Shown here in pieces: positions 6,403-49,363 of a stretch of 64,000 bases of DNA. Under the pieces are notes generated by a model. It did no database searches. It saw only the letters and a list, made by a program, of their open reading frames with translations, and was not told where the DNA came from. The DNA is taken from assembly GCA_951406725.2 (NCBI GenBank), contig OX597820.1:25420001-25484000 (forward strand). The letters run 5' to 3'. The position numbers were made by a program, and so were the translations under genes. This DNA is from Octopus vulgaris (taxonomy: Eukaryota). The stretch's first letter is position 1. Each line of letters starts with the position of its first letter.

Positions 6403-6613
6403 TATATATAAAGAAATACTGAAAATAGGACAAGAATGCAAAACATCCGGACAATTAGATGATACAAAAAAGGGACAACAAAACATCCAGACAGATGATA
6501 CAAAAAAACAAGGATGGGTCATTCGGAGTCTTCTTTTTTCAGTCAAGTTCCAGATTATCTTTGCAATTTCGGCTGGAAAGACTGAAGATGGATTATACGA
6601 AAATTTATTATTA

Positions 6614-6719
6614 ATCACGACAATTCTTTCGACACATCTAGCATAGATACCTCACAGGTGGGACACTCAACAACTGGTTCAGGAGCATCGGGTGATGCAG
6701 GTGTATCTCATCAGGTGAT
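6614..6719 (-). ncRNA. degenerate minimal type I hammerhead ribozyme (left arm of inverted pair)
   Basis: AUCAC-CUGAUGA-GAUACA..UGUGUC-GAAAg-AAUU-GUC-GUGAU: 5-bp stem I, 6-bp stem II; C15.2>G breaks stem III. Confidence 0.65.
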
Positions 6720-6766
6720 AAATAGACACAACTAATTAAAATAACAGTTCAACAATGTAACTATTT

Positions 6767-6838
6767 ATCACCTGATGAGGTACACCTGCACTGCCAGAAG
6801 CTCCTGAGGGATCAATGTGTCGAAGCAATTGTCATGAT
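6767..6838 (+). ncRNA. degenerate minimal type I hammerhead ribozyme (right arm)
   Basis: AUCAC-CUGAUGA-GGUACA..UGUGUC-GAAgC-AAUU-GUC-aUGAU; A15.1>G and one stem I mismatch. Confidence 0.6.
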
Positions 6839-6963
6839 TAAAAATAAATATATGTATATTCTAACTTCCATCATGCATTTGCCATATACTTAACGATCAC
6901 TGTGAAGGTGACTGTGCTTTACCATTAAGCTACTTTGTGTAGACCATTCGTTTTATTATCCAA

Positions 6964-7577
6964 TCATCATCATCATCATCGTCCAACGTCCGTTTTCCAT
7001 GCTAGCATGGGTTAGACGGTTCAACCAGGGTCTGGGAAGCCAGGAGGCTGCTCTAGGCTCTAGTCTGATCTGGCAATGTTTCTACAGCTGGATGCCCTTC
7101 CTAACGCCAACCACTCCATGAGTGTAGTGGGTGCTTTTTACGTGCCACTGGCACAAGGGCCAGAGTAGGCTGACAACGGCCATGATCGGTTGGTGCTTTT
7201 TATGTGCCACCGGCACAGAAGCCAGTCAAGGCGGCGCTGGCATCAGCCACATTCTGATGGTACTTTTTACATGCCTCAGGCACGGGTATCACAACCACAA
7301 TTTCCATTTGATTTTTATTTTAATGTTGATATACTTCACTCAATAGGTCTCCTCAAGTACAGCAGGTTGCCCTCAGATCCAAGGTACTTTGAATGGGCTG
7401 GGGCTGGTTATGTGAAGCTGGTGTAGGATACGCCATGGACTCACTTTATTTGTCGGGTCTTCGCTGTCACAGCATATCTCCAGAGGTTTCGGTCTTTTGT
7501 CATTGCCTTTGTGAGGCCCAACGTTCGAAGGTCATGCTTGACCACCTCATCCCATGTCTTCCTGGGTCTACCTCTAC
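6964..7577 (-). mobile_element. 5'-truncated RTE-type LINE (ORF end, long 3'UTR, (GAT)n tail)
   Basis: Minus strand 7577-7441 reads RGRPRKTWDEVVKHDLRTLGLTKAMTKDRNLWRYAVTAKTRQIK*, matching the RTE GRPxxxW..DR..WR motif. The 3'UTR ends acccatgctagcatggaaaacggacg..(gat)n. Confidence 0.8.
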
Positions 7578-7579
7578 TC

Positions 7580-7787
7580 TGGATGCCAGTCTGTCGCAGG
7601 TGAGCTGCAATATGCCGGAGGAAAGAGTGAGAGAAAGTTGTGACGAAAGAGTCAGCAGAAGTTCGCCATTACCTTCTGCCAGAGCCGTGTGGAGCTTAGG
7701 TGTTTCGCTCATAAACACACACATTGCCCGGTCTGAGATTCGAACCCGTGAGTCCGCTGCTCTAACCACCAGGCCATGTGCCTCCAC
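7580..7787 (-). mobile_element. SINE family C
   Basis: Reverse complement gives gtggaggcacatggcctggtggttagagcagcggactc..gggttcgaatctcagaccgggc. Confidence 0.7.
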
Positions 7788-7899
7788 TGATGATGACATA
7801 GCAGGAACATATTGGAAGAGAAACCCAAATATAGATGTATTATACATCCTAACATTCATCACCACCACTATTTTCATGACTGATTTCCTACATGTGCAC

Positions 7900-8310
7900 A
7901 TGTATGTAGGTCTTCTCCAGTACTGCATGTTACCACTTTCACAGTTCTTTATTGTCTCTTTCATGAGTCTCAGCTTCTTGAGATCAGTCTTCTATACCAC
8001 TTCTTCCCATGCCTTCCCCCATTTAACCCCTTTCTCTAACTTCTGGTCACTTCAAGTACATAGCATTTCTTTATGCAACTGATGTCCTTCATAAGCATCA
8101 CACAACCACCCTAGCACAGTCTTCTCTCTTGTATGCTACCTTTGATTTCTCTTATACCCAACTGTTCCATCTGCTCATTCATGCTTCATCATTCAGGCTC
8201 ACTGACATCACACATCCAATGAGACATATTTAGTAAATTTTTCTTTAGCCATTGGAGATTCTCCATATTCAAGTCCCACCTCTAATTACCATACAGTTTT
8301 TCATTTTGTG
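7900..8310 (-). mobile_element. highly degenerate RTE LINE ORF fragment
   Basis: Minus translation MSHWMCDVS..LGIREIKGSIQERRLC*GGCVMLM resembles RTE MLRWMC..RRLRWxGHVxRM; several stops. Confidence 0.55.
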
Positions 8311-8315
8311 CACAA

Positions 8316-8515
8316 GGCAGAAACGTTAGCACGCCAGGCGAAATGCTTAGCGGCATTTCGTCTGTCTTTATGTTCTGAGTTCAAATTCCGCCAAGGTCGA
8401 CTTTGCCTTTCATCCTTTTAGGGTTGATAAATTAAGTACCAGTTACATACTGGGGTCGATCTAATCAACTGCCCCCCTCCCCCAAGTTTCCAGGCCTTGT
8501 GCCTAGAGTAGAGAA
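8316..8515 (+). mobile_element. SINE family B
   Basis: ggcagaaacgttagcacgccaggcgaaatgcttagcgg head followed by the central domain. Confidence 0.8.
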
Positions 8516-9136
8516 GACATTAAGAGAGAAATCCTTTATTACCAGCAGAGTAAAAAGATCCCTGAACTTTACCATATCTCATTCTTAGTCTGGTTATTAT
8601 GTTTTCGGAACACACACCTTCACTGCTAATTAAGCCAAGTAAGTTACAAAAGTTATAAACTACTTCTAGGGAACCTTCTGAGCATTTGAAGGAATTTCAT
8701 CATCATCATTATCATCATCATTGTTGTTGTTGTCGTCGTCATCATCACTTTAATGACCACTTGTCCATGCTTGCATGGGTTAGATGGAATTTATTGAAGC
8801 AGTTTTTTACTGGATACACGTCCTGTTGGTAACCCTCACTTGTTGCCAGCAAGATAATATTTCCCAATTACCAGATAGGTTTTCACAGAACATTGGAAAT
8901 TGATGACACCGCTCATATGATAGTGACTCTCATTTACAACTCTTGCAAACACAGACACACACACACATACACATGTTCTTCTTTCAGTTTCTATCTGCCA
9001 GATCCACTCACAAGGCTTTTGTCTGTCTGGAGCTGTAGTAGAAAACAATTGCCCAGGGTACCAGGTAGTGAAACTGAACTCAAAATCTCATGGTTGGAAA
9101 ATAAATTTATTACTCATACAACTATATCTGTGCCTG

Positions 9137-9169
<33 letters not shown>

Positions 9170-9171
<2 letters not shown>

Positions 9172-9528
9172 TGGTTTCAAATTTTGCGACAAGGGCAGCA
9201 ATTATGGGGGAGGGGATGAGTCAATTACATCGACCCCAGTGTTCAACTGGTACTTATTTTATCGACCCCAAAAGGATGAAAAGCAAAGTCGATTTCAGCA
9301 GAATTTGAACTCAGAATAGAGCAACAGGCAAAATACCATCCAGCATGCTAACGATTCTGCCAGCTTGCCACCTTAATAATAATAATAATAATAATAATAA
9401 TCCTTTTTACTAAAAGCACAAGGCCTAAAATTTTGGGGAAGGGGACTAGTCGATGTCACCGACCCCAGCGTTTCACTGGTACTTAACTTATCAACTCCAA
9501 CAGGGTGATAGGCAAAGTCGACCTCAGA
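9170..9528 (-). mobile_element. two SINE family B copies separated by (AAT)n
   Basis: Reverse-complement matches to family B. Confidence 0.7.
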
Positions 9529-9536
9529 GAATAATG

Positions 9537-9597
<61 letters not shown>

Positions 9598-9803
9598 TAA
9601 TAATATTAATGATAATAATAATAATAATAATAATAATAATATTAATAGTAATAATAATAATAATAATATTAATAGTAATAATAATAATAGTAATAGTAAT
9701 AATATTAATAGTAATAATAATAATAATAATATTAATAGTAATAATAATAATAATAATATTAATAGTAATAATATTAATAGTAATAATAATAATAATAATA
9801 TTA

Positions 9804-9857
<54 letters not shown>

Positions 9858-9965
9858 TTAATGATATTAATAGTAATAATAATAATAATAATATTAATAG
9901 TAATAATAATAATAATAATATTAATAGTAATAATATTAATAGTAATAATAATAATAATAATATTA

Positions 9966-9996
<31 letters not shown>

Positions 9997-10590
9997 TATT
10001 AATATATTAATAGTAATAATAATAATAATAATATTAATAGTAATAATAATAATAATAATGTTAATAGTAATAATATTAATAGTAATAATAATAATAATAT
10101 TAATAGTAATAATAGTAATAATAATAATAATATTAATAATAATAGTAATATTAATAATAATAATAATAGTAATATTAATAATATTAATAATAATAATAAT
10201 AGTAATATTAATAATATTAATAATAATAATAATAGTAATATTAATAATAATAATAATAATAATAGTAATATTAATAATATTAATAATAATAATAATAGTA
10301 ATATTAATAATAATAATAATAGTAATATTAATAATAATAATAATAGTAATATTAATAATATTAATAATAGTAATATTAATAATAATAATAATAATAATAG
10401 TAATATTAATAATAATAATAATAGTAATATTAATAATATTAATAATAATAGTAATATTAATAATATTAATAATAATAATAATAGTAATATTAATAATATT
10501 AATAATAATAGTAATATTAATAATATTAATAATAATAATAATAGTAATATTAATAATATTAATAATAATAATAATAGTAATATTAATAAT

Positions 10591-10623
<33 letters not shown>
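9529..10623. repeat. ~1.1-kb compound (AAT)n microsatellite with ATT/AGT variant triplets
   Basis: Direct inspection; explains the 447-aa poly-I/L/N pseudo-ORF. Confidence 0.95.
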
Positions 10624-10624
<1 letters not shown>

Positions 10625-11624
10625 TATTTCAAGGAATTCGCATAACTATACAATACATGTGCATACCAGTATAGCACTTTATGTGTTCTTAAGATTTTTT
10701 TTTTTTTCATGAACAAATATAGAGAAGAAAAATGCTGGCAAATATATTAAAAATTGTACTCAATTAAAGTAAAGAGATAGAATACTTATCATTTCTCTTA
10801 TGGTTCCTCTTTTCCTTTCTCTCTCTCTCTCTCTCTCTGTCTTTTTCTACCTTATTCTCTCAGCTGCCATCGTCTTCAGAAGCAGACGTCTCCAGCCTCA
10901 GCCTGTCAGTCGCTTACCAAGGCTTAGCTCCCAGTTGTCAAGTGTAATCGCGCATATCGATCTGATGTGACACTAACGGTCGTCCAAACCTTCAAACTGG
11001 AGATAGATGCTAAGTAACGTGGTACGAGGGAAGCAGTAGTGATCGTAGAGAAAAGGCCCAAACACAGCTTTCATAGTAGCCTTCATTTAAGCTGGTTTGA
11101 TTGATTAGTATTAAAAGTATTAACCACATAATTGCCGTTATTATTGATTGGGTGATTGAGTGAGGAAGGGAAGGAGTGATCGGGGTGAGCATGGGACCGT
11201 CAGGTAAGGATGGGGAAGGGATAGTCGGAACGAATAGATATTTCCTCTTTCTGCTGCTTAATTTTCTTTTGAGAATTGGCAAACAGCTCCTGTTCCCTCT
11301 AGCAAGAAGGAGAGAGAAAAAAAAACGATAAAGAAACAACTAATCTTACACAAATATATTTTGTTTACGTCTGCAAACCAACGACGATATAACTTTATAT
11401 ACATATATACACACACAGATATATGACTACATATGTTCAACAATGTGTACACAGAAACGATATGTTTTTGTGTGTCTTATTTTTTTTGCGTGTCTCTGTA
11501 TTCTGTGTTTGCATAGCTTCAATTACGCATGACCCGACGCACTTATATATACACTCCGTAAGTACGCCTCCGAGTGTAATGAACTGTGTATATAAAACTT
11601 GCAAAATATTCTATACTTATATAT

Positions 11625-12001
11625 GTGTGGTAAGTAACTTACTTACCAACCACATGGTTCCGGGCTCAGTCCCACTGCGTGACATCTTGGGCAAGTGTCT
11701 TCTACTATAGCCTCGGGCCGACCAAATCCTTGTGAGCGGATTTGGTAGATGGAAACTGAAAGAAGCCCGTCGTATATATGTAGATATACATATGTATGTG
11801 TGTGTCTGTGTTTGTCCCTCCAACATCTCTTGACAACCGATGGTGGTGTGTTTACGTCCCCGTAACTTAGCCGTTCGGCAAAAGAAACCGATAGAATAAG
11901 TACTTGGCTTACAAAGAATAAGTCCTGGGGTCAGTTTCCTCGACTAAAGGTGGCGCTCCAGCATGGCCACAGTCAAACTACTGAAACAAGTAAAAAGAGA
12001 G

Positions 12002-12002
<1 letters not shown>
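11625..12002 (+). mobile_element. SINE family A
   Basis: Head (5' clipped), core and tail present. Confidence 0.85.
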
Positions 12003-12032
<30 letters not shown>

Positions 12033-12289
12033 TCTCTCTATATACGTTCTGTGTGTGTGTGTGCTTGTTTACTTATTTTTGTTTACTACTATAAACACAC
12101 CACAATACGGCATGACACACACTGCTGTGTGTATTAGAAAATGTGTAAATGTCTCTCTTTCAGTGTGTATGCTCTATCTTTGAAACCCGCGACAGTCGCA
12201 CCATGACACAGCACACACACACACACACACTTGCATGTGTGGACAGACAAATCAACACAGAAGGAAGAGATGGACCCAACACAAAGACA

Positions 12290-12336
<47 letters not shown>

Positions 12337-12709
12337 TCGTACTCCTGCATACACACACACATATATCACAGGCTTCCACACAGTTTCCATCTACGAAATT
12401 AACTTACAAGGTATTAGTTGACACCTGAAGCTATTGCAAAAGACACTTGCCCAATGTACCACACATTGGGATTGAACACCAAACCACATATTTGCAAAGT
12501 GAACGTGTTAACCACACAGCCTTGCCCTCCAAATTTGTGTGTATATTTCCAAGTGTACATGTATGTGTGTGTGTGTGTACATGCAAAACTGTTTAAATGT
12601 AGGACTAATTACATTTGTTGTGTGTGTATGTATGTATGTATGAATGTATGTATGTGTGTATGTCTATGTTGCATGTCTGTATTTGTGTTCCTATTTTTGT
12701 ATGGCTCTG

Positions 12710-12746
<37 letters not shown>

Positions 12747-13292
12747 ACATAGCTATTAGACTTTTTAATTTTATGTCTATATTAGTTATTTGTTTTGTAT
12801 GTATGTAATTATAGCTGTACACACTTCTATAGCTATATATGCATATAAGTAAGTATGCATATACAATTGTATATGTGTGTATGTATGTATGTATGTATTA
12901 ATGTATGTGTGCATGTGTTTGTGTGTAAATAACAAACGTACATGCACATATCTTTATTTTATATAAGGAACAAATAAAATCTATAAAACAAACGGGAGCT
13001 GAAATAATTTCTCTTTTATTTTGTCCTTAAGAGCTCTAGGAAGTATTAGGCATGAAATCTCAGTTTGTATCCCAGATTTTAACTTCCTGAACCTGATTTA
13101 TGCAAGTGTGTGTCTACTTTGACATCTGTATGTGTAAATGTGTGCATCATCATCATCATGCGTGAAAATTTTCAGTTGGAATCAAAATAAGCAATCAGTT
13201 CCCTAATGCTTATCAACGTTTGTTGGAAAACGTCGGTTGCCTTTGTGTGTGTGTCTGCATGTATCTCTATCTATACATACATGTGCATATAT

Positions 13293-13328
<36 letters not shown>

Positions 13329-13377
13329 ACATATATATATACATACATGTATATATATGTATACACACACACACAAA

Positions 13378-14050
13378 GGCATAGGTGTTGCTATGTGGTA
13401 AGGAGTCTGCTTTCCAACCACATGGTTCTAGGTTCAGTCCCACTGCACGGCACTTTGAGCAAGTGTCTTCTACTATAGTTCTCGGCTGACCAAAGCCTTA
13501 TGACTGGATCTGGTAGATGGAAACTGAAAGTAGCCTAACATAGTTGTGTATATCTGTGTGTATGTCTTTGTGCATGTGTCTGTACCACACCACTATTTCA
13601 CAACCTGTGTTGGTTTGTTTATGTCCCTACAACAGCAGTTTTGCAGGTATGGGAACTGAAACAAGTAAAAGATAATATATATTTCTTTTATCTTTTACTT
13701 GTTTCAGTCATTAGACTGCAGCCATGCTAAGGCATTGTTTTGAAGAATTTTTAGTTACATGAGTCAATCCCAGTACTTCTTTTTTGAAGCCTGGTATTTA
13801 TTCTATCAGTCTCTTTTGCTGAACTGCTAAGTTATGGGGACGTAAACACATCAACACTGGTTGCCAAGCGGTGATGGGGAACAAACAGACACAAATGCGC
13901 ACTCACACACAGACAGACACACACACACATACAGATAAATTTATACAACAGGCTTGTTTCAGTTTCCATCTACCAAATCCACTTACAAGGCTTTTGTTAG
14001 CCCAAGGCTATAGCAGAGGGCACTTTGCCCAAGGTGTCACATTCCGTTGC
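13378..14050. mobile_element. two SINE family A copies tail-to-tail (+ 13378-13672, - 13685-14050)
   Basis: Degenerate family A motifs in opposite orientations. Confidence 0.7.
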
Positions 14051-15174
14051 GTTTCTTGTCCCCATCTGACCAAAATGGTGATATGATGTTTACATTCCTA
14101 ACTGGTCACTCTGCATTTTTGAAGACCAGTGGAATAAAAAAAAATCTCTTGCTTGGAAAATAGATAAAATCCTGCAATTTCCTGTCCAAAACCTTGAGAG
14201 CACTCTTGCATTCTGGTGTTTATTTGGTCCTAAGAACCACTTGGGGTCTGATATGAAGTTGTCGAATCCCTGAATTCTCTTGTCAGTTATTGACAACAAA
14301 TGCACCCTTCATATTTAAGCCTCCCCAAGAAAGAGTATAGCAGCAATAAATGAAGAAATAACTGCAATAGCACACACACTCAAATACATGTGTGTGTATG
14401 CACACATACACACAGACACACTGCATGTGCACATGAACACACATGCACACAAACACTACATGCACACAAGCACACATGCTTCAGGGCCGAGAGCAAACAA
14501 AACAAAGCAAAACTACACAGAGTGTGATTTAGGATGGTGGACAAGGACGAACAGACAAGCAAAATATGGCCTTGGGACCAAGAAGACAAGAATAGTGGGT
14601 AATGCTTAGAAGATATCTTAAAGGATAGAGAATGGAGAGACAGAGAATTTGTGATTGGTCAGCTATGGGACCAGTGTGAGAAAGGGAGAAAGCTGGCCAT
14701 GGGTGATGTGACAGCAACAGGTAGAGGAGAAAGACATCAGCAAGAGAGTGACAGAGAGAAAAAAGGAAAGAAATGAGGGGAGAAAAAGAGGAAGGAGAAA
14801 GGTTAGAAATACAAGAGAGAGAGAGAAATGAAAAAAGAAGAAAGGTTAGAATAGAAGTGAGAGGGGGAGAAAAGGGAAAGGCTAGAATTGAAGTGAGAGT
14901 GTGAGAGAAAGAAAAGGGAAAAGAATGAAGGCAAGAGAGAGAAAGTCACATAGGTATATAAGAAATTTACTTGTTAATACAAATTCTGTGTGCATTGCAT
15001 TCTGTTACTTAGTATATTAATGTTTCACTCAAGCATAGCAAGACTAATAGTGTGGTGTGGTGTAGAACTCAATATATGTATTGTCCTGAACACAATGTTA
15101 TATGAGTATAGAGTGGTTATAGAAATCAAAGAGATGACATCAGAAAAAACAAATGTTATGTAATAAACTTCATT

Positions 15175-15255
15175 AGCTTACAGCTGTTTCTGCTATAAGA
15201 TGTGGTGGACTCTTTGTTGAGTACCAAGATATCATCCTATAGCTTCATCAGAGCC
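15175..15255 (-). ncRNA. minimal type I hammerhead ribozyme with extended stem II
   Basis: GGCU-CUGAUGA-A-GCUAUAGGAUG..CAUCUUAUAGC-A-GAAAC-AGCU-GUA-AGCU: intact core boxes, 11-bp stem II, palindromic stem III loop, 4-bp stem I; the 10.1/11.1 position is A.A. Confidence 0.75.
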
Positions 15256-16229
15256 TTGAATATGAAGTGCACTTTATTTGGGAAACCTTACATTTTCAGA
15301 ACATATGGGTGTTATGAGTGAGAAAGTTTACATTGATGGATAGGGCAAGTTCTATCCTGCTGTCATCGCTTTGTTTTCTATATACACACATACTTTTTAT
15401 TTTATTTATGGGTTTTATGTTATGTTAAGAGCAATATTTCTTAACAATTATCAAGTCTGTCACATGGGACTTTTGTGTTCATCTCCATCTTGGATAAAAA
15501 AAAAAAAAAACCCAAGATGGAAACGAACATTGATGTTCCATATTACAGGACTGATAATTGTTAAGAGATATCTCTCTTAACATAAAACCAATGGTAGCTC
15601 GGTTAACACACAAATAAAGAATATTTATCCACCAATGTGTGTTGAGCACTCAATTTCATTGTTCGATATTAATGCATATATACATACATATATATATATA
15701 TATATAATAGATCAGGCTGTTGATGAGCCAAAAAAAAAAAATCAGACATTAATCTTCATACACATACATACACACACCACATGCACACGAACATGTACAT
15801 GTAGCATCCAGCCACCTTTTTGCAGATCATAAATCGCTAATGAAATTCGAGACATTTCATGTATATGTATATGCACATTCATTGTTAATTGGAAAAAAAA
15901 AAAAAGAAAAACCTTTTATGCTGCCAGTCGACATATCAGGAGAGGAGAGAGAGAGAGAAACAGAGAGAGAAACAACTGTATATAACTGCAACAAGAATTC
16001 ACTCTATATTCTTTGTGTCATCCATTTTTTAAACAATCTTCTTTTATGTAATTTCTTTCACTAGCAATTGTTTACATTGAGGTCCTGACCATTAATACCT
16101 TCTTCATTATTCTTTTATCATGAGGGGGGGAAAAAAGAACAAAAAAATTGCTTTCATTTTTGTCGCTGTTGTTGTTGTTATTTTCTCTTTCTATTGTATT
16201 CAGTTTATTCAATTTGCCTATTTTTTTAA

Positions 16230-16423: not shown

Positions 16424-16456
<33 letters not shown>

Positions 16457-19527: not shown

Positions 19528-19689
19528 GGCTTTATTTCCACACACGCCAGCTTAATTTAATTTGTCCTTACTCGAAACACACCTGTTGTTATGTCCTGTT
19601 ATTATTTTCATTGTATTTGTGTAACATTGTCCGTTTTTTCCGTCCTTGTTTTTGTATACATTCGCTGTTTTCTTCCAAGGAATCTAATA

Positions 19690-19915
19690 CTCTTAGCTTA
19701 GTTTTTCTTTGGGGTTGGCCAGATTGGAGCAGTCTCGAGTATAATCAGCCAAAATTGCGAAGATAATCTGGTACTTGACTGAAGAAAGAAAGCTTCGAAT
19801 GACCCGTCCTTGTTTTTTTTTGTATCTTCTATCTGGATGTTTTGTCGTCTCATTTTTGTATCACCTAACTGTTCGGATGTTTTGCACTCTTGTCCCATTT
19901 TGTATTTTATATTAA
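19690..19915. repeat. dispersed repeat, inverted relative to 6420-6575
   Basis: aaaattgcgaagataatctggtacttgactgaagaaagaa..tgtcccattt is the approximate reverse complement of 6420-6575. Confidence 0.7.
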
Positions 19916-20759: not shown

Positions 20760-20839
20760 CATATGTATATAAATTAGAGAAGAACCACCATGTAGCAATT
20801 CAACAATAATATAATTAAATATTCGATAAAACATTTACC

Positions 20840-20902
20840 TAGAACTAAATAAAGTACAAAATAATACTATTTATTTATTATTTTGTACTTTATTTAGTTC
20901 TA
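20840..20902. repeat. AT-rich hairpin, ~26-bp arms
   Basis: tagaactaaataaagtacaaaataata / tattattttgtactttatttagttcta. Confidence 0.8.
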
Positions 20903-20964
20903 AGTATTTTTATTTAGTTCTGGCCGCAGTCAAATGACTGAAACAAGTAAAAGAGAGAATAAGA

Positions 20965-23451: not shown

Positions 23452-24250
23452 TTCGTTACATTCTGAGTTCAAATTCCGCTGAGGTTGATCTTGTCTTTCA
23501 TTCTTTCAGGGTTGATAAATTAAGTACCAGTCATGTACTGGAGTCGATGTGTTCAATTGTCCCCCTCCTCTCAAAAGTCCAGGTCTTGTGCCTATAGTAC
23601 AAAGGAATATTAAGCTGGTGTAAGGTAGTGAGCAGGCAGAATTGTTAGCATGCTGAGTGAAATGCTTATAGGTATTTCATCTGCCGCTACATTCTGAGTT
23701 CAAATTCCGCTGAGGTCGACTTTGCCTTTCATCCTTTCGGGGACGATTAAATAAGTACCAGTTACGCACTGGGGTTGATATAATCAACTTAATCCGTTTG
23801 TCTGTCCTTGTTTGTCCTCTCTGTATTTAGCCCCTTGTGGGTAGTAAAGAAATAGGTATTTCATCTGTCTTTACATTTTGAGTTGATATTCTGCCAGGGT
23901 TGACTTTGCCTTTCATCCTTTCAGGGGTTGATAAATTAAGTACCAGTAGAGCATTGAGATCAATGTAAGGAACTAGTCCCCTTCCCCGAAGTTTCAGGCC
24001 TTGTGCCTATACTAGAAAGAATTATTATAGGGCATGTAAAGCACTGAGCTACCAGAATCATTAGCATGCTGAGCAAAAGACTTAACAACATTTCATCCAT
24101 CTTTACATTCTAAGTTTAAATTCTTCCTAAGTTAACTTCAATTTCATCCTTTTAGGATTGATAAAATAAGCACCAGTTGGACCTTGGGGTCAATGTAATT
24201 GACTAGCCTCCACCCCCAAATTTGCTGGCATTGTGCCAAATTTTGAAGTG
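23452..24250 (+). mobile_element. cluster of ~4 head-to-tail SINE family B units
   Basis: Repeated acattctgagttcaaattcc..tttcatcctttc..gataaattaagtacc. Confidence 0.8.
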
Positions 24251-26201: not shown

Positions 26202-26232
<31 letters not shown>

Positions 26233-26270
26233 GACAAAGTGAAGTTGTAAGATACTGCACGAGTGGAAAT

Positions 26271-26666
26271 ATATATGAAAGAAGGTTTGAAAATGCAATT
26301 TTAAAAGGTGTTTATTCACTTGACCAGTTTCACTTTTTTAGAAAAAGATTGTCGAAAGTAAAATGTAAAAGTTTTGTAAAAACTTTGTTGTGTTAAGTAC
26401 TGGTTGTCACAAAATATTGCAATACATATATACATTCTTAATATTTTCTCAAGATTTTTCCTTGTAAACTGTTTTAACATTTTTATTATTATTATCAAAG
26501 AATGTATATATGTATTGTAATATTTTGTGACAACCAGTACTTAACACAACAAAGTTTTTACAAAGCTTTTACATTTTACTTTTGACAATCTTTTTCTAAA
26601 AAAGTGAAACCGGTCAAGTGAATAAACACCTTTCAAAATTGCAGTTTCAAATCTTTTTTCGTATAT
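26271..26666. mobile_element. ~169-bp-arm inverted repeat with decayed outward-facing hammerhead-like motifs (26318-26359 -, 26578-26619 +)
   Basis: Arms 26271-26439 and 26498-26666. Right arm reads ACUU-uUGACaA-UCUUUUU..AAAAAGU-GAAAC-CG-GUC-AAGU then AATAAA. Confidence 0.7.
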
Positions 26667-28290: not shown

Positions 28291-28432
28291 TAAGGGCAAA
28301 AGAAAAAATTCCTATGCCAAATATGCCGAGAAATAGACTTTAACCACATAGTGATGAATTATATGTGATTATTGACAATTTAAGTTTATTTCTCAGCATA
28401 TTTGGCATAGGAATTTATTTCTTTTGCCCTTA
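28291..28432. repeat. ~50-bp-arm inverted repeat
   Basis: taagggcaaaagaaaaaattcctatgccaaatatgccgagaaata / tatttctcagcatatttggcataggaatttatttcttttgccctta. Confidence 0.85.
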
Positions 28433-31307: not shown

Positions 31308-31383
<76 letters not shown>

Positions 31384-31466
31384 GGTCCCGGGTTGATTCG
31401 GGGTTAACCACAGTAAATAAGGTACTCAATACATAGCAGAGTAAAATTAATTTATTATATAGAAGG

Positions 31467-31517
31467 AGCTTCTACAGGACTAGAACTGTTTCATTCAAGA
31501 GAAATCTTCAGGAAGCC
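31467..31517 (-). ncRNA. minimal type I hammerhead ribozyme, apparently intact
   Basis: GGCUUC-CUGAAGA-UUUC-UCUU-GAAU-GAAACAG-UUCUAGUC-CUGUA-GAAGCU: 6-bp stem I, short stem II with a U.U first pair, 4-bp stem III, GUA triplet; predicted cut at 31473/31472. Confidence 0.8.
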
Positions 31518-31518: not shown

Positions 31519-31568
31519 GGCTTCCTGAAGATTTCTCTTGAATGAAACAGTTCTAGTCCTGTAGAACT
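31519..31568 (+). ncRNA. minimal type I hammerhead ribozyme, mirror copy
   Basis: Same core as the minus copy; 1-nt deletion in the 3' strand of stem I (GAACU); predicted cut at 31563/31564. Confidence 0.7.
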
Positions 31569-31579
31569 CCTTCTATATA

Positions 31580-31626
<47 letters not shown>

Positions 31627-36939: not shown

Positions 36940-37142
36940 GTTGAAATTTATAGAAAAACAAAAGATGAAGACAGGTGTATGAACAACAAGCGTTTTAGTT
37001 TGACACTCAGGAAAATAAAAAAGTCATTTACATTTCGAGCCTATGCTCTTTAACAGAAAGGAATAAGAGAAAATAAGCAAAGAGAGAATAAAAGAAACTT
37101 GTAGATTTCAGTCGTCCAGCATAGTGTGTATGTATGTATGTG

Positions 37143-37323: not shown

Positions 37324-37382
<59 letters not shown>

Positions 37383-37530
37383 TCTTCCTCTTTATTTCTG
37401 TGTTCCTTTTTGTTGTAGAGCGTAGGCTCGAAACATAAAAGACTTTCTCACTTTCCAAGCGTTAAACTAATACATCTGTTTATTGTTTACACACCCACCT
37501 TCGTCTTTTGTTTTTTTGCAAATTCTCACT
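36940..37530. mobile_element. diverged inverted pair (~150-bp arms) around a microsatellite, with hammerhead-like motifs (37025-37061 -, 37405-37441 +)
   Basis: Two-arm consensus CUUU-CUGUURAA-GAGC-GUAG-GCUC-GAAAC-GUA-AAAG; the 5' core box is non-canonical. Confidence 0.55.
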
Positions 37531-39755: not shown

Positions 39756-39965
39756 AAGGCAGCAAGCTGACAGAACCGTTAGCATATCAGACAAACTGCT
39801 TAGTGACTTCTCCTCTGGTTCTTTATTTTCTCAGTTCAAATTCCGCCGAGGTCATCTTTGCCTTTCATCCTTTTAGAATCGATAAATAAGTACCAATCGA
39901 GTACTGCAGTCAATATAATCAACTAACCCCATCCTTTAAAATTGCTGGCTTTTGCCAAAATTTGA
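39756..39965 (+). mobile_element. SINE family B ending ~50 bp upstream of the exon
   Basis: aaggcagcaagctgacagaaccgttagc head and central domain. Confidence 0.75.
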
Positions 39966-40013
39966 ATCTGTTATCTTCAATTGATTTATCTTGTTTTCAT
40001 TATTATTTTACAG

Positions 40014-40420
40014 ATTATTGGTTCCTGTTCAAGCTTTGGTCGAACAAGAAGGTCCAAGTATATTTTCAATTCGGGACGAGAAAGGCCACACACCAGCTCA
40101 CTGGGCTTGCCTTGGAGGACATACCACCATTCTTCGCTTCATCATAGAATGCAAAGGGTTAATAAATGAGCCGAGTCAAAATGATCCTGGTGCACGACCA
40201 ATTCACTGGGCTTGTGTGAATGGGCACATTGCTGTTGTGGACATACTAGTGCAGGCAGGCGTCCCACTTGATGTGATGGACAATAAGGGCTGCACGCCCC
40301 TAACTGTTGCTGCACAGTATGGCCAGACTATGCTTGCTGCCTATTTGATGGGGAAAGGTGCACAGAAACAACTTGTTGACAAAGACGGCGATAATGCTTT
40401 GCATTGGGCAGCTTTCAAAG
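40014..40420 (+). CDS. internal coding exon, ~4 ankyrin repeats, likely Patsas/ZDHHC13-17-like DHHC palmitoyltransferase
   Basis: Acceptor ttttacag| at 40013 and donor |gtaagg at 40421 (phase 2 in, phase 1 out). Peptide GHTPAHWACLGGH..GARPIHWACVNGH..GCTPLTVAAQYGQ..GDNALHWAAFKG resembles the Drosophila Patsas ankyrin region from memory. No DHHC domain is in the window. Confidence 0.9.
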
Positions 40421-40643
40421 GTAAGGCAGTTTTAAAACTTCCTCATAAAAAGAAAAAAAACAGCTCTTTAAATGTTTGATCTTTATAAATCTTTCCAACC
40501 CACAGACATAGGGATATGATTAAGAAGCTTGCCTCCCAACCATGTCACCCACTGCACTGCATCTTGGGCAAGTGTCTTCCTCTATAGTCTCTGGCCTTGT
40601 GAGTGGATTTGATAGATGGAAATTGAAAGAAACCCATTGTATG

Positions 40644-40674
<31 letters not shown>

Positions 40675-41230: not shown

Positions 41231-41530
41231 GAGGTTCAATGGCCCAGTGGTTAGGGTAGCAAACTCAGCGGTTTTAGGATTGCAGTTTCGATTTCCAGAT
41301 CAGGCATTGTGAGTGTTTATTGAGCGAAAACATCTAAAGCTCCACGAGGCTCCGGCAGGGGGTGGTGGCGATCCCTGCTGTACTCTTTTGCCACAATTTT
41401 CTCTCACTCTTTCTTCTGTTGGCTTGCTCACTTAGCCAGTGGGGTGGTGTCATCTGAAGGCTAAAACAATGTGAAGCGCATTGTGACCAGCGATGTGTAG
41501 TAACATCAGATAGCCTGGTCAGTCATGGTG
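41231..41530 (+). mobile_element. SINE family C, near full length
   Basis: gaggttcaatggcccagtggttagggtagc..aaagctccacgaggctccggcagggg. Confidence 0.75.
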
Positions 41531-42181
41531 ATATATATATATATATATACACACACATACACACAAACACATGGTGGACTTCTTTCAGTTTCCATCTACC
41601 AAATCTGCCAAAGGGTTTTCTGCAATAGCCCAGAGCTATAGCAGAACACCCTTGCCCAAAATGTAGCACAATGAGATTGAAACCAGAACCATGTGGTGAG
41701 GAAGCAAGCTTTTTACCACACAACCACTGCAAAGGTGAGAGAGGGATCAAATATATAAGGTGAGTGCAGGGAGGTGGATAGGTATATCATGGCTTGGTTA
41801 GGTGGGGCATATTATAAAACCAACATAATGTTTATTTACACAGCTCTCTCATCTACTGAACCGAGCCCACACCTCTCTTGACATACAATTGATGATAATG
41901 AATAAGTATTAAAGCTTTGTCACGCTGTATTGATGTGGTGGTGGTGGTGGTCGTGGTGGTGGTGGTACTCATAATGGTGTCAATGGTGTTCATGGTTGTG
42001 GCAGTGGTGGTGGTTTTGGTGGTACTCATAATGGTGTCAGTGGTGTTCATGGTTGTGGCAGTGGTGTTGGTGGGGTGGACATCCAGATAACTTCACTGGA
42101 TTGACACATAACTGATTGGACAAACATAGAATAAATAGCTAAATAAAAGCAAAATGAATACACACACATGCGTATATTACA

Positions 42182-42231
<50 letters not shown>

Positions 42232-42639
42232 AGAGAGAGAGAGATAGGCAGATAGATAGATAGATACATGTATATATATATGCACACACACACATATGCA
42301 TAGATACATACATAAATACACACACACATGAAATGCATGCATGCATATATACATACATACATACCTCTGTGTGTGTGTGCACAGAAAACAAAGAGTAATA
42401 TTGTTTTGGATTAAGAGGATAAAACTGCATAAGCAATAATGATTTTTTTACTGCATCCAGCCTCAAGACCTACTCAACACTTCCATGACTGTCAATTAAT
42501 GTCGGTTTTATATGTATGTATTCTTAGAGGGTGTGTCCTACACTTATGAATGCCTCTATGTGTAATAATTAGGTGGCTGTATATGTGAAATGAGTTAGGG
42601 AATGTATTTGCATATATAAAATTATATACACTTGTTTTA

Positions 42640-42808
42640 ATATATATATATATACGTGTGTATGTGTGTGTACATACATGTATATATGTATATGCATATT
42701 TAGATATAAACATTTACATATATACATACTTATATGTGTGTGTGTATGCATATATATATATGAAGATTTTTACATATATATATGTATAAATATATATATA
42801 TGTATGTG

Positions 42809-42840
<32 letters not shown>

Positions 42841-42912
42841 TATGCATATGTAGATACATACATATACACATATATACATACATGTATATATACATGCATA
42901 TGTAGATATATA

Positions 42913-42979
<67 letters not shown>

Positions 42980-43115
42980 CATATATATATATATATATAT
43001 ATATAAAACACATACACATATATATATATATGCATATATATATATTTATATACATATGCATATATATATATATGTATGCATATATGTATGTATGTGTGTG
43101 TGTATATATATATAA
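42640..43115. repeat. (TA)n/(TG)n/(CA)n compound microsatellite
   Basis: Direct inspection. Confidence 0.9.
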
Positions 43116-44363
43116 TGTCTGGAGAGAGTCATTCTCTTTTACTGCCTTATTACTTAACACACCCACTGGTTCAATTTCCATTCATTTACTTTTTTTTTTT
43201 ATATATATGTGCGTGTGTGTGTATATGCATATGTATATGTATATCTATATACGCAATTGCACCTTTTCCTATCATTCAATACTACCCCTCCCCAGTCAGT
43301 TGAGGATTCTTGTACTGCAAGTTACTTGGTGAAATCACTGCTGCTGGTGACCACATAAAATGCACCGAGTAAACTTTGTAAAGTGGTTGGCATTGGGAAG
43401 GGCATCCAGTTGTAGAAAGCATGCCAAGCAAGCTTCTTAGCACACAGCCACTCCTGCACCTATACCTGCACAAAAATGTTTTAGAAAATAGCAAATAGCA
43501 GAAATATCAATACAAAATATAGCAGCTAAATTTCCCTCAAATTACATCTTACCATCTTCAACTATGAAAAACGCATTGCACTATATAGTTGCTGATATAT
43601 ACAAAAATGACAAGATGATCACACGAATAAACTTCTAAACTGCAATTTGCTGAAAAGCAATGGAAGATCGCTGAAAGCATCAACAGCAAGAACAAAAACA
43701 ATAACAACAACAGGACAGTCTGGTAATATTTTTGTCCAATCCATTGTATAGTTTATTGCAACTAGAGCGTAATGTCAAGCAAACTGGGTGCAGCTAGCAA
43801 AAATAGATGGCTTTTGTTGTGCTGACTACAGGTTGTCTAATTGTAGCAAATCCAGAACTCAGCACATGGTTTTTTTTTCTATATGCCTCCCGGCTGTTAG
43901 ACAATGTAAGAAACTCTAGGCAAAGAAAAAAAAAGAAAAATGACAAAAATTTGGCTTCATTAGTCGACTAAAAGGGAGAAATAGGCAGGAAAATTGTTCA
44001 GATCAATAAGACGAGCTGTGCCATTTAATAATATAGCTTGGGAGAGAGAGAAAGAGAAATACAAAGGGAGAACCTGCTCACAACAGAATCGAATTGTCCA
44101 GGCTGGTTAGGGTGGAGAGCAGCTAGAAAATGAGTGAAAGAATCAAAGACAAACAAAAACATATATTGCTAAACAGAGATGAAAGCATCCAGTGTAGCTT
44201 GTAAATCCGTCTTTTCTTTGTCTTCTTTGTGTTTTTTGCTGTTGAAATTTCAGTGTGTCATTTTAAATGTGTGTGTGTGTTTATTTATATATATATACAC
44301 ACACAAATATATACAAATACATATACACACATAGATAAGCATACATATATATATAGATGATGA

Positions 44364-44418
<55 letters not shown>

Positions 44419-45227
44419 AATATATGTATATATATATATTTGCATACATATTTATATAAAGATTCATATATATATATATATATTCACACACACAGACATA
44501 TATATATATATACACACACACACATACACCTATACATATATACACACATATGTATAGATATTCATATTCTCTCTCACACACACATATATATATTATGTAT
44601 GTATGGATATGGATATATGTGTATGCATATGTGTGAGTGTATGTGTGTGTATGCATATACATGCATATATATATAAGTGTTTACAGACACATACACAAAT
44701 ACACTCACACACACACACACACACAATGTACACTGCTTATCTCTTTTATTATCTTCTCTTGCCTTCAACTACTTTTCTCAGTTGGTTTGCTTAGTTTTAC
44801 ATGCTTGGGCAGCTTCTGTTTTAGACCTTCTTCATTTCTTCATTACTCTGTTTAAAAAGATGCTGTGAAATACACGAGAAGCAGGGAGGGGCACAGAATA
44901 CATTCATTTGCTGCAGAGTTGATGTTTTTGCTTCATCTATGGATGTGCAGTTAGCCAAATTTCAATTAGACTGCATTCTAATTCTGCTCCACTTCTGCAT
45001 CATCTTAATCATTGCCATCACTGTCAGCAACACTACTGGGTGTTACCTGATGAGTATGGTTATTGCTTGTTGAAAATTGTTATTTTTGTTGTTATTATTA
45101 AGGCAGTGAATAGTAGAATCCTTAACATACTGGACAGAATGCTTAGCAGCAGTTCTCCCAGCTTTGTGTTCTGAGTTCAAATGCCACCGAAGTTGTCCTT
45201 GCATTTATGTTTTATCCTCATCCAGGT

Positions 45228-45600
45228 CACACTGTAAAGTGGTTGGTGTTAGGAAGGACATCCAGCTGTAAAAGCCTTGCTAAAACTGACCTTGCCTGTG
45301 TTTGTGCCACATAAAAAGCACAAAGTCCGCTCTGTTGGATGGTTGGTGTTAGGAAGGGCATCTAGCTGTAAATACCTTGCCAAAACTGACCTTGCCTGTG
45401 CTTGTGCCACATAAAAAGTACTGAGTCCACTATGTTGGGTGGTTGGTGTTAGGAAAAGCATCCAGCTGTAAAAATCCTGCCAAAACAGTCACAGAAGTCT
45501 GGTGCAGGCTTCTGCCTGGATGGCTCCTGTCAAATCATCCCACTCATACCAGCGTGGAAGGCAGATGTTAAACGATGATGGTCGTGATGATGATGATGAT
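45228..45600 (+). mobile_element. RTE-type 3'UTR variant with 100-bp tandem periodicity
   Basis: ggttggtgttaggaa recurs at 45241, 45341 and 45441; (gat)n tail. Confidence 0.75.
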
Positions 45601-46361
45601 CAATGAAACAAGTACCTATTGAGCACTGGGGTCAGTGTAATCAACTAGCCCCTGCCCTCCTAATGTCAGGCTTTGTGCCTATAGTAGAAAGGATTACAAT
45701 CATCAGCAGCATTAGCATACTTATTATCATTAGCCCTAGGTCAACCCTGATCAAGTTAGTCAACATTACTCTGGAGCATAGGGCTGCAATTATTTCAAGT
45801 CACTGGACATGATCTTGGGCTGCCTCCTTGATTTCAGACGAAGGGAGACTGATTGCTTTCTCTTCATTCTCCATGCATCTTGTAATCAAATCTAGGATCT
45901 TTGTGGTTATCGTCATTGCATGTTGAAATCTTTGAAAAATATTTTAAGGCATCATATAGAAGTAATTTTTGATGCTAAATCCAAATTTGTTAATCTATTT
46001 ATTCCAGAAAGATTTTGTGAAAATGTTACGGGTGTTCAAAGTTTGATAGTTTTCAGAATTTTCAACAAATCAGAAAACAGTTTGTTCACTGCCTCTTCTA
46101 TCATCTGTAACAGTAGCGAGAAAGCAGGGTTACCAGGATGTCAAAACATTAAACTAGCTACAGTAAACAGTGAAAAACATTAAAAGATCCGTGAGCAAAT
46201 TAAATATTTAAAAGCTAAGAGTAAACCAACAAGAGTTGCTAGAAATAACAATCAAAACATTGCTTAAAACAGACATTTATTAGTTTAAAAAATTCAAGAA
46301 CGAAAGTTTGCAAGACACTCTAAGATTTTATAAAATAAATTATCTTTCACATCTTTCTCAT

Positions 46362-46728
46362 AGGCACAGGAGTGGCTGTGTGGTAAGTAGCTTGCTTACC
46401 AACCACATGGTTCCGGGTTCAGTCCCACTGCATGGCACCTTGGGCAGTGGATTTGGTAGATGGAAACTGAAAGAAGCCTGTCATATATATATATATACAT
46501 TATATATGTATGTGTGTGTATATGTGTGTCTGTGTTTGTCCCCCAACATTGCTTGACAACCAATGCTGGTATGTTTATGTCCCCATGGCTCAGCAGTTTG
46601 GCAAAAGAGGCTGATAGAATAAGTACTAGGCTTACAAAGAATACGTCCTGGGGTCGATTTGCTCAACTAAAGGCAATGCTCCATCATGGCCACAGTCAAA
46701 TGACTGGAACAAGTAAAAAAATAAAAGA
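46362..46728 (+). mobile_element. SINE family A (internal deletion in core)
   Basis: Head and tail present. Confidence 0.85.
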
Positions 46729-46730
46729 AC

Positions 46731-47110
46731 ATCTGCTTTTCCACATAAATTCACAAAGATAAGAAACTTTGTGTCCCACACCAGCGTTTGTTTCCACGCT
46801 TTAAGGATGCCCAGGTACTCTCAGTTTATTGAGTGTGAGTCCCATTTTTTGAGTCAATGCTATGGTTCACAGTTTTGTTTGAAACCATAGCCCATGATTT
46901 TTGGGATATGATAAGCTCGCCACAGGCCACTGAAGAGAGTGGTTCCTGGAAGAACTGAGTGTCAGATGCAGTCCTTGTTTACACTCCTTGTGTTCATGCG
47001 CAGCATCTTTGATTACTATGGAAACAGAGTTCTTCGCAATCAGCTATGGAACACATGGCATATAGTCTGTCTTGATTCACCATCCTTCCTTTAGCAGAAA
47101 TTTAACAATT
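46731..47110 (-). pseudogene. Merlin/IS1595-superfamily (ISXO2-like) transposase relic
   Basis: Minus strand reads SVLPGTTLFSGLWRAY..KTVNHSIDSKNGTHTQ*TESTWASLKR..SYLCEFMW, with the motifs in Merlin order; stops and frameshifts present. The part above ~46970 is less certain. Confidence 0.8.
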
Positions 47111-47206
47111 TAAGTATTTCCAATTAAAATACAGAGAATTAATAGTTATCACCATGCTAACATGGCAGTCCAGGAAAATAGGACGAATGCTGCCGTTGAT
47201 TATTAA

Positions 47207-48279
47207 CCCTTTCGTTACTATATTTCTGACCAAATTACACCCCTTATGTGTTTCAATTAATTTCTAACGTAATCATAAATTTAGTCTGGTTTCATTAAAC
47301 AACTATAACTTTTTTATTTATCGATATATTAATCTGATTTTTGGAAGATAATTTAATGAAATATTCTCAACCAATTCTATACTATAATTTTTGTCACAAA
47401 GTGACTCTAATTGCAGGTAGATACAGGTAAATTCCACAAAATATAAAATTATTAAAATTTTGTTCAAACATCGCTATAGAAAATGGGTTATTAGCTAATA
47501 TTCAATTGGGTATACAACAAAATTTTACGATAGAATTTGTTATTCTGGGTAACTTTCTGATACCCATAATAATATTTATGGCAAAATAGTCTTAATTTCA
47601 TTTTAGGTTGTGGGAAACCACAAACTATCCTTTCGTTCGCTTTGTTTATGTTTAGCGTAACGGTTCGTTTCTGCCGTAATGATTTCAAATAGGCTCATTC
47701 GAAAAAGTAAAAAGAAATAGTCTAAGGCTTTACCCTTCTGGGAAAGTCTGTGGCTTGGTCCAGTTTCTTCAGAAAAATCACCGAAAGAAACAGTTTTTAA
47801 ATTTTCACTCCATTCAGGTGCCAATTCGTTTTCTTTATCGCTATTGGAGATCTCAGATTCACTGTTTTCACTTTCGGAAAATGAAACAGATTCATTATCA
47901 AATACCACATGCTTTTTTTTTTCAGTCATAGAGTTAGATTTATGAAGGTCTTCAGTAGAAAATCCTTTGAATTCTGACTCGCTGCTTGATATAATGAAAT
48001 TCGTATCCATTATTTGTCAGAATTACAAATTTTGGAAACACGATAGGAACAAATTTCGGAAAAAAATCTCCCAAAATTCACGGAATTAAAATTACACTTC
48101 GATTATTGTACAAAACTGTAGTTGAACTGTTTACGAAGTATAATACGTGTTTTCACGAATGTACTGAAGAGATTTGCTCTGATATTCTCATTTAAATATG
48201 AATAGGTAAATTCGGGCGGCTTTGGGCGGTTTGGTCTCATAAACCAAAATTTTTTTGGGGCGGTTTGGTAATGAAAGGG
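47207..48279 (-). mobile_element. internally deleted piggyBac transposon
   Basis: TTAA (47203-47206) CCCTTTCGTTAC ... GTAATGAAAGGG TTAA (48280-48283); subterminal GGGCGGTTTGG repeats. Confidence 0.9.
47603..48010 (-). CDS. truncated piggyBac transposase N-terminus (135 aa)
   Basis: Acidic Ser-rich start, then DYFFLLF..IITAETNRYA..WFPTT (start of a DDE_Tnp_1_7-type domain); the catalytic region is absent. Confidence 0.8.
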   Translation of the reverse strand: MDTNFIISSSESEFKGFSTEDLHKSNSMTEKKKHVVFDNESVSFSESENSESEISNSDKENELAPEWSENLKTVSFGDFSEETGPSHRLSQKGKALDYFFLLFRMSLFEIITAETNRYAKHKQSERKDSLWFPTT

Positions 48280-49363
48280 TTAATATCCAGTACTGCTGCC
48301 GTAGTCTCCTTTAGAGAGACTTAAAAATATTAATATTTCTAATTTTGAAAACCAGTGGATGTATTCCACTGAATTTAGGTAAATAATCCTTCGAACAGAC
48401 GGTCAGCAGCAATGCCTGCTGTGTTCGGCTGCTCTATATTGATAAGGGGCAAATACCCCAAAACTAGTCTGTAGATGCCAGATCAGCAAGGGGAAGTGGC
48501 TGACCTCCCCTGTTTGAAGGTTATAATGGACACAGGTTCGTGTGTCACATAGCTAGCTAGAGGTGATGGCCTCTTGGAGCTAATCAACGGCAGCATTCGT
48601 CCCGTTTTCCTGGACTGCCATGTTAGCTTGGCAATAACTATTAATATCCAGTATTTCTATTATAGAGAGAAATGTTTTAGTCTTACAGGGTAAAAAACGA
48701 TAATGTGTATTTCCCTTTATTAAGCTGGCAGGGTGTGATTATATAAGGTGTTTTAGCTGCTATTTCTGTAGGAAGTAGCAGCCAAATCTCCTTCAGAGTT
48801 CTCATATAGAATCTTCCATCTTTATTCATAGTAGGGAGTCTGTTCAGGATGAATAACTTTCTCAGTTCTCACAAGGCAAGGGGTTTGCTACTCATCCATT
48901 TTCTTCTTGTTTCATAAATGTAACATGATTTTCCTTAATTGTTTTTTTCTTTTCAGTTTTTGTCTATTACAAACTCCCTCTAAGTATTTCCTGTCCCACA
49001 GGAAAAGAATCTCTGAAAAGAGACATCTGTTCTCCTGTAGCAATATCATTTATATGTACAATGAATAACTAGACAAACAGATTTGTGGATAAATAAATGA
49101 ATAGATCAAGAGATTGTGTTTGTGATTTACAAACACACACAGCTGGAAACTTGGGTTAGATTTGTTAATGGCAGTCCAATGGTGAAAGCACTGGCACCTG
49201 GAATTTAAGCTGTTAATAATTAAAGAGAGAATAAATAGGTCTTAATAGATACAAGTAATTCTCTGATTTGATGCTTTAGAGGGGTTTTTTTTGTTTTTTG
49301 TTGGATTTTTTTCCCTTTTCTTTACTTATTGGATGGAAGTAGGAAAATGCACAAAGAACCACT

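Follow-up and report, generated by a model that had tools for sequence, protein, structure and literature searches.

The window analysed in this study is a stretch of 64,000 nt from Octopus vulgaris (contig OX597820.1 of assembly GCA_951406725.2, positions 25,420,001 to 25,484,000, forward strand), and its features of interest are small repeats shaped like type I hammerhead ribozymes. A hammerhead-like grammar was found at six places, labelled locus A (6.7 kb), B (15 kb), C (26.5 kb), D (31.5 kb), E (37 kb) and F (48 kb); five of these repeats are clear and one is badly decayed (Table 1). A first-pass annotation had described the six loci as sharing no obvious similarity outside the ribozyme core, and blastn indeed found none among them, nor did a self-blast detect a second copy of any of the six within the window. 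The divergent pairs that it had reported at four loci, with the left arm on the minus and the right arm on the plus strand, were likewise seen at A, C, D and E. Probably, these loci are insertion leftovers of several unrelated families of Penelope-like elements (PLEs) and of their non-autonomous derivatives, each carrying a small type I hammerhead.

Table 1. Coordinates of the hammerhead-bearing loci and their parts within the window.
Feature	Position	Strand	Description
Locus A left arm	6602..6730	-	C3 at 6714, CUGAUGA, GAAAG AAUU GUC (C15.2>G), H17 at 6619
Locus A right arm	6756..6849	+	C3 at 6772, CUGAUGA, GAAGC AAUU GUC (A15.1>G), H17 at 6833
Locus B segment	15105..15394	-	~290 nt; 39-nt ends 82% complementary
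Locus B hammerhead	15175..15255	-	complete core CUGAUGA / GAAAC AGCU GUA, 11-bp stem II, 4-bp stem I
Locus C extension	26232..26270	-	39 nt beyond left arm only, reaching (TA)n run
Locus C left arm	26271..26439	-	UCGACAA (U3-A8, extra U4>C) / GAAAC UG GUC, C3 position 26355, 7-bp stem I
Locus C right arm	26498..26666	+	UUGACAA (U3-A8, otherwise intact) / GAAAC CG GUC, C3 position 26582, 7-bp stem I
Locus D extension	31380..31449	-	70 nt beyond left arm only, reaching (TA)n run
Locus D left arm	31450..31517	-	complete core CUGAAGA / GAAAC ... GUA, 6-bp stem I, weak 3-bp stem II
Locus D right arm	31519..31585	+	motif as in left arm, 1-nt deletion in stem I', ends at (TA)n
Locus E left copy	36945..37090	-	decayed loop-less CUGUUAA, A, GAGC-AUAG-GCUC, GAAAU GUA; C3 at 37056
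Locus E right copy	37380..37530	+	decayed UUGUUGU, A, GAGC-GUAG-GCUC, GAAAC AUA; position 3 at 37410
Locus F inverted fragment	47138..47202	-	copy of last 65 nt of 361-nt unit, 60/65 identical, no hammerhead
piggyBac-like insert	47207..48279		CCCTTT ends, TTAA on both sides, at inversion junction
Locus F unit	48280..48640	+	361 nt, no open reading frame, 43.8% GC, long predicted rod around hammerhead
Locus F hammerhead	48433..48475	+	6-bp stem I, UUGAUAA (U3-A8), 4-bp stem II, AAAAC (G12>A) UA GUC, H17 at 48469
Locus F tail	48641..48653	+	13 nt repeating the unit's first 13 nt

Core boxes and stems of the hammerheads

The common core grammar that had been proposed for the six loci holds in outline at each of them, but the full CUGANGA...GAAAC...GUH core occurs in only three of the ten copies (15251 and 31511 on the minus strand, 31525 on the plus strand). 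When the type I core boxes are taken as C3UGANG8A, GAAA and U16.1-H17, with either C3-G8 or U3-A8 as the core pair, they are complete in B, in both arms of D and in the right arm of C, and deviate at one place each in both arms of A, in the left arm of C and in F. The two copies of E lack the set; their cores depart from it at three and four places, and both have U at position 6. The U3 and A8 that replace C3 and G8 at C and F keep the core pair, and this variant, found here at two unrelated loci, is published for PLE hammerheads (PMC4209133).

Three stems were found in the type I order, with stem II reduced to 3 bp in D and a weak stem I in the left copy of E and the right arm of A. The G10.1-C11.1 pair is G-C in A, B, E and F and is not present in C or D; an unpaired A was noted in B and E. 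The self-complementary pairing of positions 15.2, loop 3 and 16.2 is perfect in B and the right arm of A (8/8) and in C and F (6/6), and partial in the left arm of A (6/8) and in D, whose left arm has a longer stem III (12/16). Two-strand folds of B, F and the left arm of D yield a dimeric hammerhead pairing. Cleavage is predicted after GUC or GUA, mainly in dimers held together through the palindromic stem III; most of the copies in the window are probably dead.

Comparison with shuffled sequence was made by a log-odds scan, designed after the loci were known, against 100 block-wise dinucleotide shuffles. The first eight ranks in the window were taken by eight of the ten claimed copies, the hammerhead of B having the top score; since paired arms cannot be treated as independent, these matches count as five loci. 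At a score of at least 22 there were eight matches, against a shuffle mean of 0.63 (maximum 3), and at a score of at least 25 seven matches, against 0.13 (maximum 2); the best single shuffle score, 28.6, was reached once in the 100 shuffles. The motif is therefore more frequent here than in dinucleotide-shuffled sequence, a comparison that the first-pass annotation had singled out. A stricter scan, which counted mismatches, returned one perfect match (shuffle mean 0.01), one match with one mismatch (0.21) and six with two mismatches (4.87), the last class not being enriched. Loci A, B, C, D and F are real, and E, taken by itself, is indistinguishable from background. Two matches of score 21, at 23928 (plus strand) and 9503 (minus strand), belong to another abundant dispersed repeat, lie inside the shuffle range and were rejected, as were CUGAAGA matches at 47772, 47955 and 48164, which are located inside the piggyBac-like insert.

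The expectation that standard annotation would miss such elements is in keeping with the Rfam search: in e-value mode, no hammerhead was among the best 150 of 304 matches, and motifs of this kind are thus easily missed. Locus D scored 65 bits on a microRNA (miRNA) model of Rfam, under the model cut-off of 100.

A 361-nt unit with a nested transposon at 48 kb

With the piggyBac-like insert removed, locus F consists of an inverted 65-nt fragment joined to a 361-nt unit that is followed by a 13-nt tail. The first-pass annotation had placed this hammerhead inside terminal inverted repeats (TIRs). The repeats at 47138 and 48645 are instead the unit's own inverted 3' fragment, hence this is not an element inside TIRs; locus F has the anatomy of a non-LTR (long terminal repeat) retrozyme. 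Folded as a circle, the unit has a z score of -5.05, and its minus strand one of -7.69, against 60 shuffles. The piggyBac-like insert is a later, unrelated insertion that splits the locus. It gives a weak Pfam match to DDE_Tnp_1_7 (E 0.0016, below the cut-off) and holds a 137-aa piece of an acidic open reading frame (ORF), with which homologue and PDB searches returned nothing significant. The right end of the insert is deeply covered by contigs of sequencing run X18.

Other copies of the unit were sought by comparing four sequencing runs with positions 48200-48760. Run X18, whose RNA nature is only guessed, supplied 127 contigs. All six of those covering position 48460 have a G there, as a consequence of which other copies of the family carry GAAAC in place of the AAAAC of the window, and no variant of the UUGAUAA box is listed among the X18 contigs. 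In stem I a G-U pair is replaced by G-C in four of four contigs, and one contig has AU for UA in loop 3 with the palindrome retained. Two contigs, whose shorter sides measure 35 and 44 letters, join the end of the unit to its start, as do three loose ends; junctions of this kind are compatible with a DNA tandem, a multimeric RNA and a circle. Contig depth drops to zero after 48655. In the raw DNA run X23 a 68-nt stretch at the start of the unit, 48285-48352, was seen to be duplicated in tandem, with three reads at the joint.

Non-LTR retrozymes are defined as 170-400 nt long (Cervera and de la Pena, 2020; PMC7229834), and a recent study links retrozymes to the pseudo-LTRs (pLTRs) of PLEs (Li et al., 2026; bioRxiv 10.64898/2026.07.22.740005), with cleavage in one of nine retrozyme dimers assayed. 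Locus F agrees with these elements in its length (361 nt, as compared with ~350-390 nt in mussels), a GC content below 45%, the lack of an ORF, strong self-pairing, a type I hammerhead with a 6-bp helix I and a 4-bp helix II, head-to-tail junctions and a solo monomer in the genome. It differs from them in its U3-A8 core, its PLE-type inverted 3' fragment and its short tail. The available part of PMC7229834 does not use the word 'inverted', and no inverted retrozyme fragment was met with in that of Li et al. (2026). It is tempting, if still somewhat speculative, to see in locus F a 361-nt retrozyme family not described before, which would have a U3-A8 core and the integration signature of a PLE, namely an inverted 5'-truncated copy and a more-than-unit tail; with the same reserve, locus E may additionally represent a CUGUUGA (A6U) family, and decayed hammerheads may rank among the commonest repeats of the genome.

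The solitary copy that had been reported at 15 kb lies, on the present evidence, within a segment of ~290 nt whose ends pair with each other. This segment of locus B has a fold z score of -5.33 against 100 shuffles; no terminal repeat was found in it and no further copy was seen. With its candidate boundaries, it is a possible second retrozyme-like monomer.

Inverted pairs and the anatomy of Penelope-like elements

The arms of the inverted pairs are 67-170 nt long, both face outward, and they start 6-84 nt upstream of the core. The two arms are identical at 80 of 94 aligned columns in A, 160 of 169 positions in C, 67 of 67 in D and 109 of 141 in E. In the left arm of A the stem II region is branched and 77 nt long, and the right arm has one of 43 nt, 34 nt shorter; at D, 6 nt separate the core from the inversion point upstream of it. 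The signal AAUAAA follows the cleavage site by 6-17 nt in A, C and D, that is in three of the four pairs (10 nt downstream in the left arm of A), where 0.076 occurrences are expected per 60 nt, and is not present in B, E or F. The arrangement of a copy joined head to head to an inverted 5'-truncated one is found at A, C, D and F and is ambiguous at E. One-sided extensions measure 39 nt at C, 70 nt at D and 13 nt at F, and (TA)n or microsatellite neighbours occur at C, D and E, the right arm of C itself ending at a (TA)n run.

Inverted 5'-truncated copies with a one-sided tail have been described for PLEs (Arkhipova et al., 2013, PMC3846280; Craig et al., 2021, PMC8557442; Goubert et al., 2022, PMC8969392). 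The head-to-head orientation, the extensions of 39 and 70 nt on one side and the (TA)n neighbours match the PLE structure of PMC8557442 and PMC3846280, and by analogy the extension at C is likely a PLE 'tail' in the sense of these papers. The extension at D is tail-like, but its 70 nt stand against the published 30-40 nt; that either extension belongs to the element is inferred. Together with PMC4209133, this literature agrees with the link to PLEs and their dimer-type type I hammerheads that had been drawn at the outset.

Three groups of known systems can be compared with the loci. For PLE pLTR hammerheads, Cervera and de la Pena (2014; PMC4209133) reported thousands of minimal hammerheads per metazoan genome, belonging to several families and mostly solo, with opposite-strand pairs ~100-700 bp apart, a covariant U3-A8 pair and a palindromic loop 3, and found no cleavage of monomers and low cleavage of dimers. 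The window loci resemble these in comprising several unrelated and mostly ORF-less families in one genome, in such pairs, and in the U3-A8 core, a loop 3 that is either palindromic or missing, the long stem II and the predicted dimer action. They differ in being linked to no full PLE, in that E alone is strictly loop-less and has U at position 6, in the missing G10.1-C11.1 of C and D, and in the much longer stem II regions (43-77 nt) of A and B. With the inverted 5'-truncated pLTRs of endonuclease-bearing (EN+) PLEs (PMC3846280; PMC8557442; PMC11167929) they share the head-to-head inversion, the optional one-sided tail, AT-rich or microsatellite targets and an element end shortly downstream of the ribozyme; they differ in having no ORF between or beside the repeats and no clear 8-10 bp target duplication, and in tails of 70 nt at D and 13 nt at F as against 30-40 nt. 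The third group, the non-LTR retrozymes, has been compared with locus F above. Natural hammerheads with U3-A8 and a slow A6C variant have also been reported (Perreault et al., 2011; PMC3088659), and cleavage by an Anolis PLE hammerhead was shown to need the element's protein, the ribozyme being dispensable for insertion in vitro (Frangieh et al., 2024; PMC11167929).

A plausible mechanism, modelled on the published biology of PLEs, would begin with a GIY-YIG endonuclease that nicks AT-rich DNA. The reverse transcriptase (RT) would start shortly downstream of the ribozyme and stop early, and the joining of an inverted, 5'-truncated second copy head to head would produce a short inverted repeat that bears a divergent pair of hammerheads. 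At locus F, the same process might have acted on a 361-nt ORF-less RNA, circular or multimeric, of the non-LTR retrozyme type. It would have left behind a single unit, followed by a more-than-unit tail of 13 nt, together with an inverted fragment of 65 nt, and the piggyBac-like transposon would later have split the locus.

Several observations weigh against assigning the loci to PLEs and their derivatives. The first-pass annotation had suggested a search for copies attached to RT and GIY-YIG ORFs; Pfam detected no PLE RT or GIY-YIG domain in 34 of the 146 listed ORFs or in 18 read-through frames beside A, B and F, so that the loci are at most fragments or derivatives of PLEs. No clear target-site duplication was recognized at the loci, just a degenerate ~22-nt match at F, and no microsatellite lies nearer than 290 nt to A, B or F. 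Two-strand folds of A, C, E and the right arm of D, seven copies in all, gave no clean hammerhead pairing, and the copies of E are absent from the top 30 of the log-odds scan, below background. Other family copies were compared for locus F only, and in a single run that is a guess as to RNA; no X18 contig spans the whole 361-nt unit, and the raw DNA runs X22 and X23 gave no reads and six reads, and X14 no contigs, on 48200-48760, numbers that are no measure of copy number. The covariation of stems, available for F, is divided: the change from G-U to G-C and that from UA to AU speak for it, but a change at 48472, present in three X18 contigs, disrupts a pair of stem I, and in the deepest contig the outer pair of stem II is gone.

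Alternative explanations

The loci could all be dedicated small non-autonomous families, each of its own fixed structure, rather than fragments of autonomous PLEs. That F closes as a 361-nt cycle, that B sits inside a self-paired segment and that no ORF adjoins any locus would all fit. In A, C and D, on the other hand, the arms are too short for whole units, they start at differing distances from the core, and they lack a terminal direct repeat; PLE copies are normally 5'-truncated and inverted (PMC8557442; PMC3846280; PMC8969392). For F and B this explanation overlaps the one that we favour; for all six loci we regard it as unlikely. The tiny non-autonomous families that had been envisaged are supported by the 48-kb unit, which is multi-copy and forms a closed 361-nt cycle, and are plausible at 15 kb, but are unsupported for the four inverted pairs, because the 5'-truncated inverted ends of ordinary PLEs suffice to explain them.

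Near-perfect inverted repeats in TA-rich flanks, other short inverted repeats of the window that have no clear hammerhead, and a genuine TIR element inside F itself are features to be expected if the pairs were MITEs (miniature inverted-repeat transposable elements) or fold-back DNA transposons, with hammerhead-like boxes as chance or captured passengers. We consider this very unlikely, as three pairs have arms whose hammerhead grammar exceeds that of shuffles, the one-sided extensions are unlike symmetric TIRs, and the supposed TIR of F is the unit's own 3' end, which is joined head to tail in other copies; symmetric, fixed TIRs with a target duplication are displayed by the nested piggyBac-like insert only, A, C, D and F being asymmetric and without clear duplication. 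Chance matches thrown up by a repeat-rich window would account for the unenriched two-mismatch class (6 versus 4.87), for the shuffle that reached 28.6 and for the position of E below background, and the scoring was devised after the loci had been seen. Such matches are plausible for E only. As an account of the whole set they are extremely improbable in view of the eight matches of at least 22 where shuffles average 0.63, and for F they are contradicted by the intact G12 box of other copies and the double change that keeps the palindrome.

Relation to published elements and significance

Elements of this class, their opposite-strand pairs and U3-A8 core included, have already been published, as PLE hammerheads in 2014 and as retrozymes in 2020. 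Of the new details, the most useful is found at locus F: a retrozyme-type unit of 361 nt that bears an inversion and a tail of PLE type. A 2026 repeat annotation of octopus lists Penelope families and, in the available text, does not use the word ribozyme (PMC13282606); 235 Rfam hammerheads were counted in a squid genome (PMC6962438). A literature search on cephalopod retrozymes and octopus hammerheads, with supplements outside its reach, met no description of these families, which may already be catalogued in Repbase or Dfam.

If the assignment to PLEs is correct, one more animal genome contributes families to a class first described in 2014, and Penelope ends can hide among short inverted repeats that are filed as MITEs or miRNA hairpins, as the miRNA-model score of locus D illustrates. 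Should locus F indeed be a retrozyme family that integrates in the manner of a PLE, it would be direct genomic evidence that PLE enzymes mobilize animal retrozymes, hitherto argued from co-occurrence and phylogeny, and would make the question of which enzymes move them directly testable. The density of roughly one locus per 10 kb that had been put forward describes this one window and includes decayed copies.

Locus E and other repeats of the window

Locus E is embedded in microsatellites, and since ~250 nt of microsatellite lie between its copies, these possibly represent two independent insertions. No match to the E motif was found in an exact-pattern scan of viral and metagenome contigs, and a literature search for an A6U hammerhead variant listed no paper that uses the term.

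The window has a GC content of 37% and abounds in microsatellites and dispersed repeats resembling short interspersed nuclear elements (SINEs). An exon-like ORF with ankyrin repeats lies at 39985-40476 on the plus strand (Pfam Ank_2, E 8e-23), and loci near it may be intronic. The only RT in the window is a frameshifted remnant similar to long interspersed nuclear elements (LINEs) at 61900-63359 on the minus strand, with RVT_1 and zf-RVT domains (Pfam), which we take from its motifs to resemble the R4/Dong type and not a PLE. The ankyrin exon, the LINE-like remnant and the repeats together mark the window as animal-like intronic or intergenic DNA.

Further inverted repeats were observed. One, at 10-121, has arms identical at 46 of 50 positions and a centre that reads GAAAU GUU on the minus strand; this centre recalls a loop-less hammerhead divided within stem II, of which it would be the second half, and the repeat may be a seventh such locus. 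Beside locus B, an inverted repeat at 15408-15592 with a central A-run has in each arm (C/U)UGAUAA, a 9-bp hairpin and UAAAAC rather than GAAAC, and may be a further decayed hammerhead pair. Short inverted repeats in which no hammerhead is recognizable were detected by self-blast at 28291-28432, 20836-20906 and 13655-13708. They could be MITEs, SINE ends joined head to head, or PLE ends that were cut downstream of their ribozyme. An exact-pattern scan of metagenome and genome contigs for the commonest SINE-like repeat of the window gave no matches. Another repeat family is represented by two copies in opposite orientation, at 6400-6575 and 19600-19900, the first of which abuts locus A, and a large AT-rich minisatellite with mixed units of 9, 12 and 15 nt occupies positions 9415-10650.

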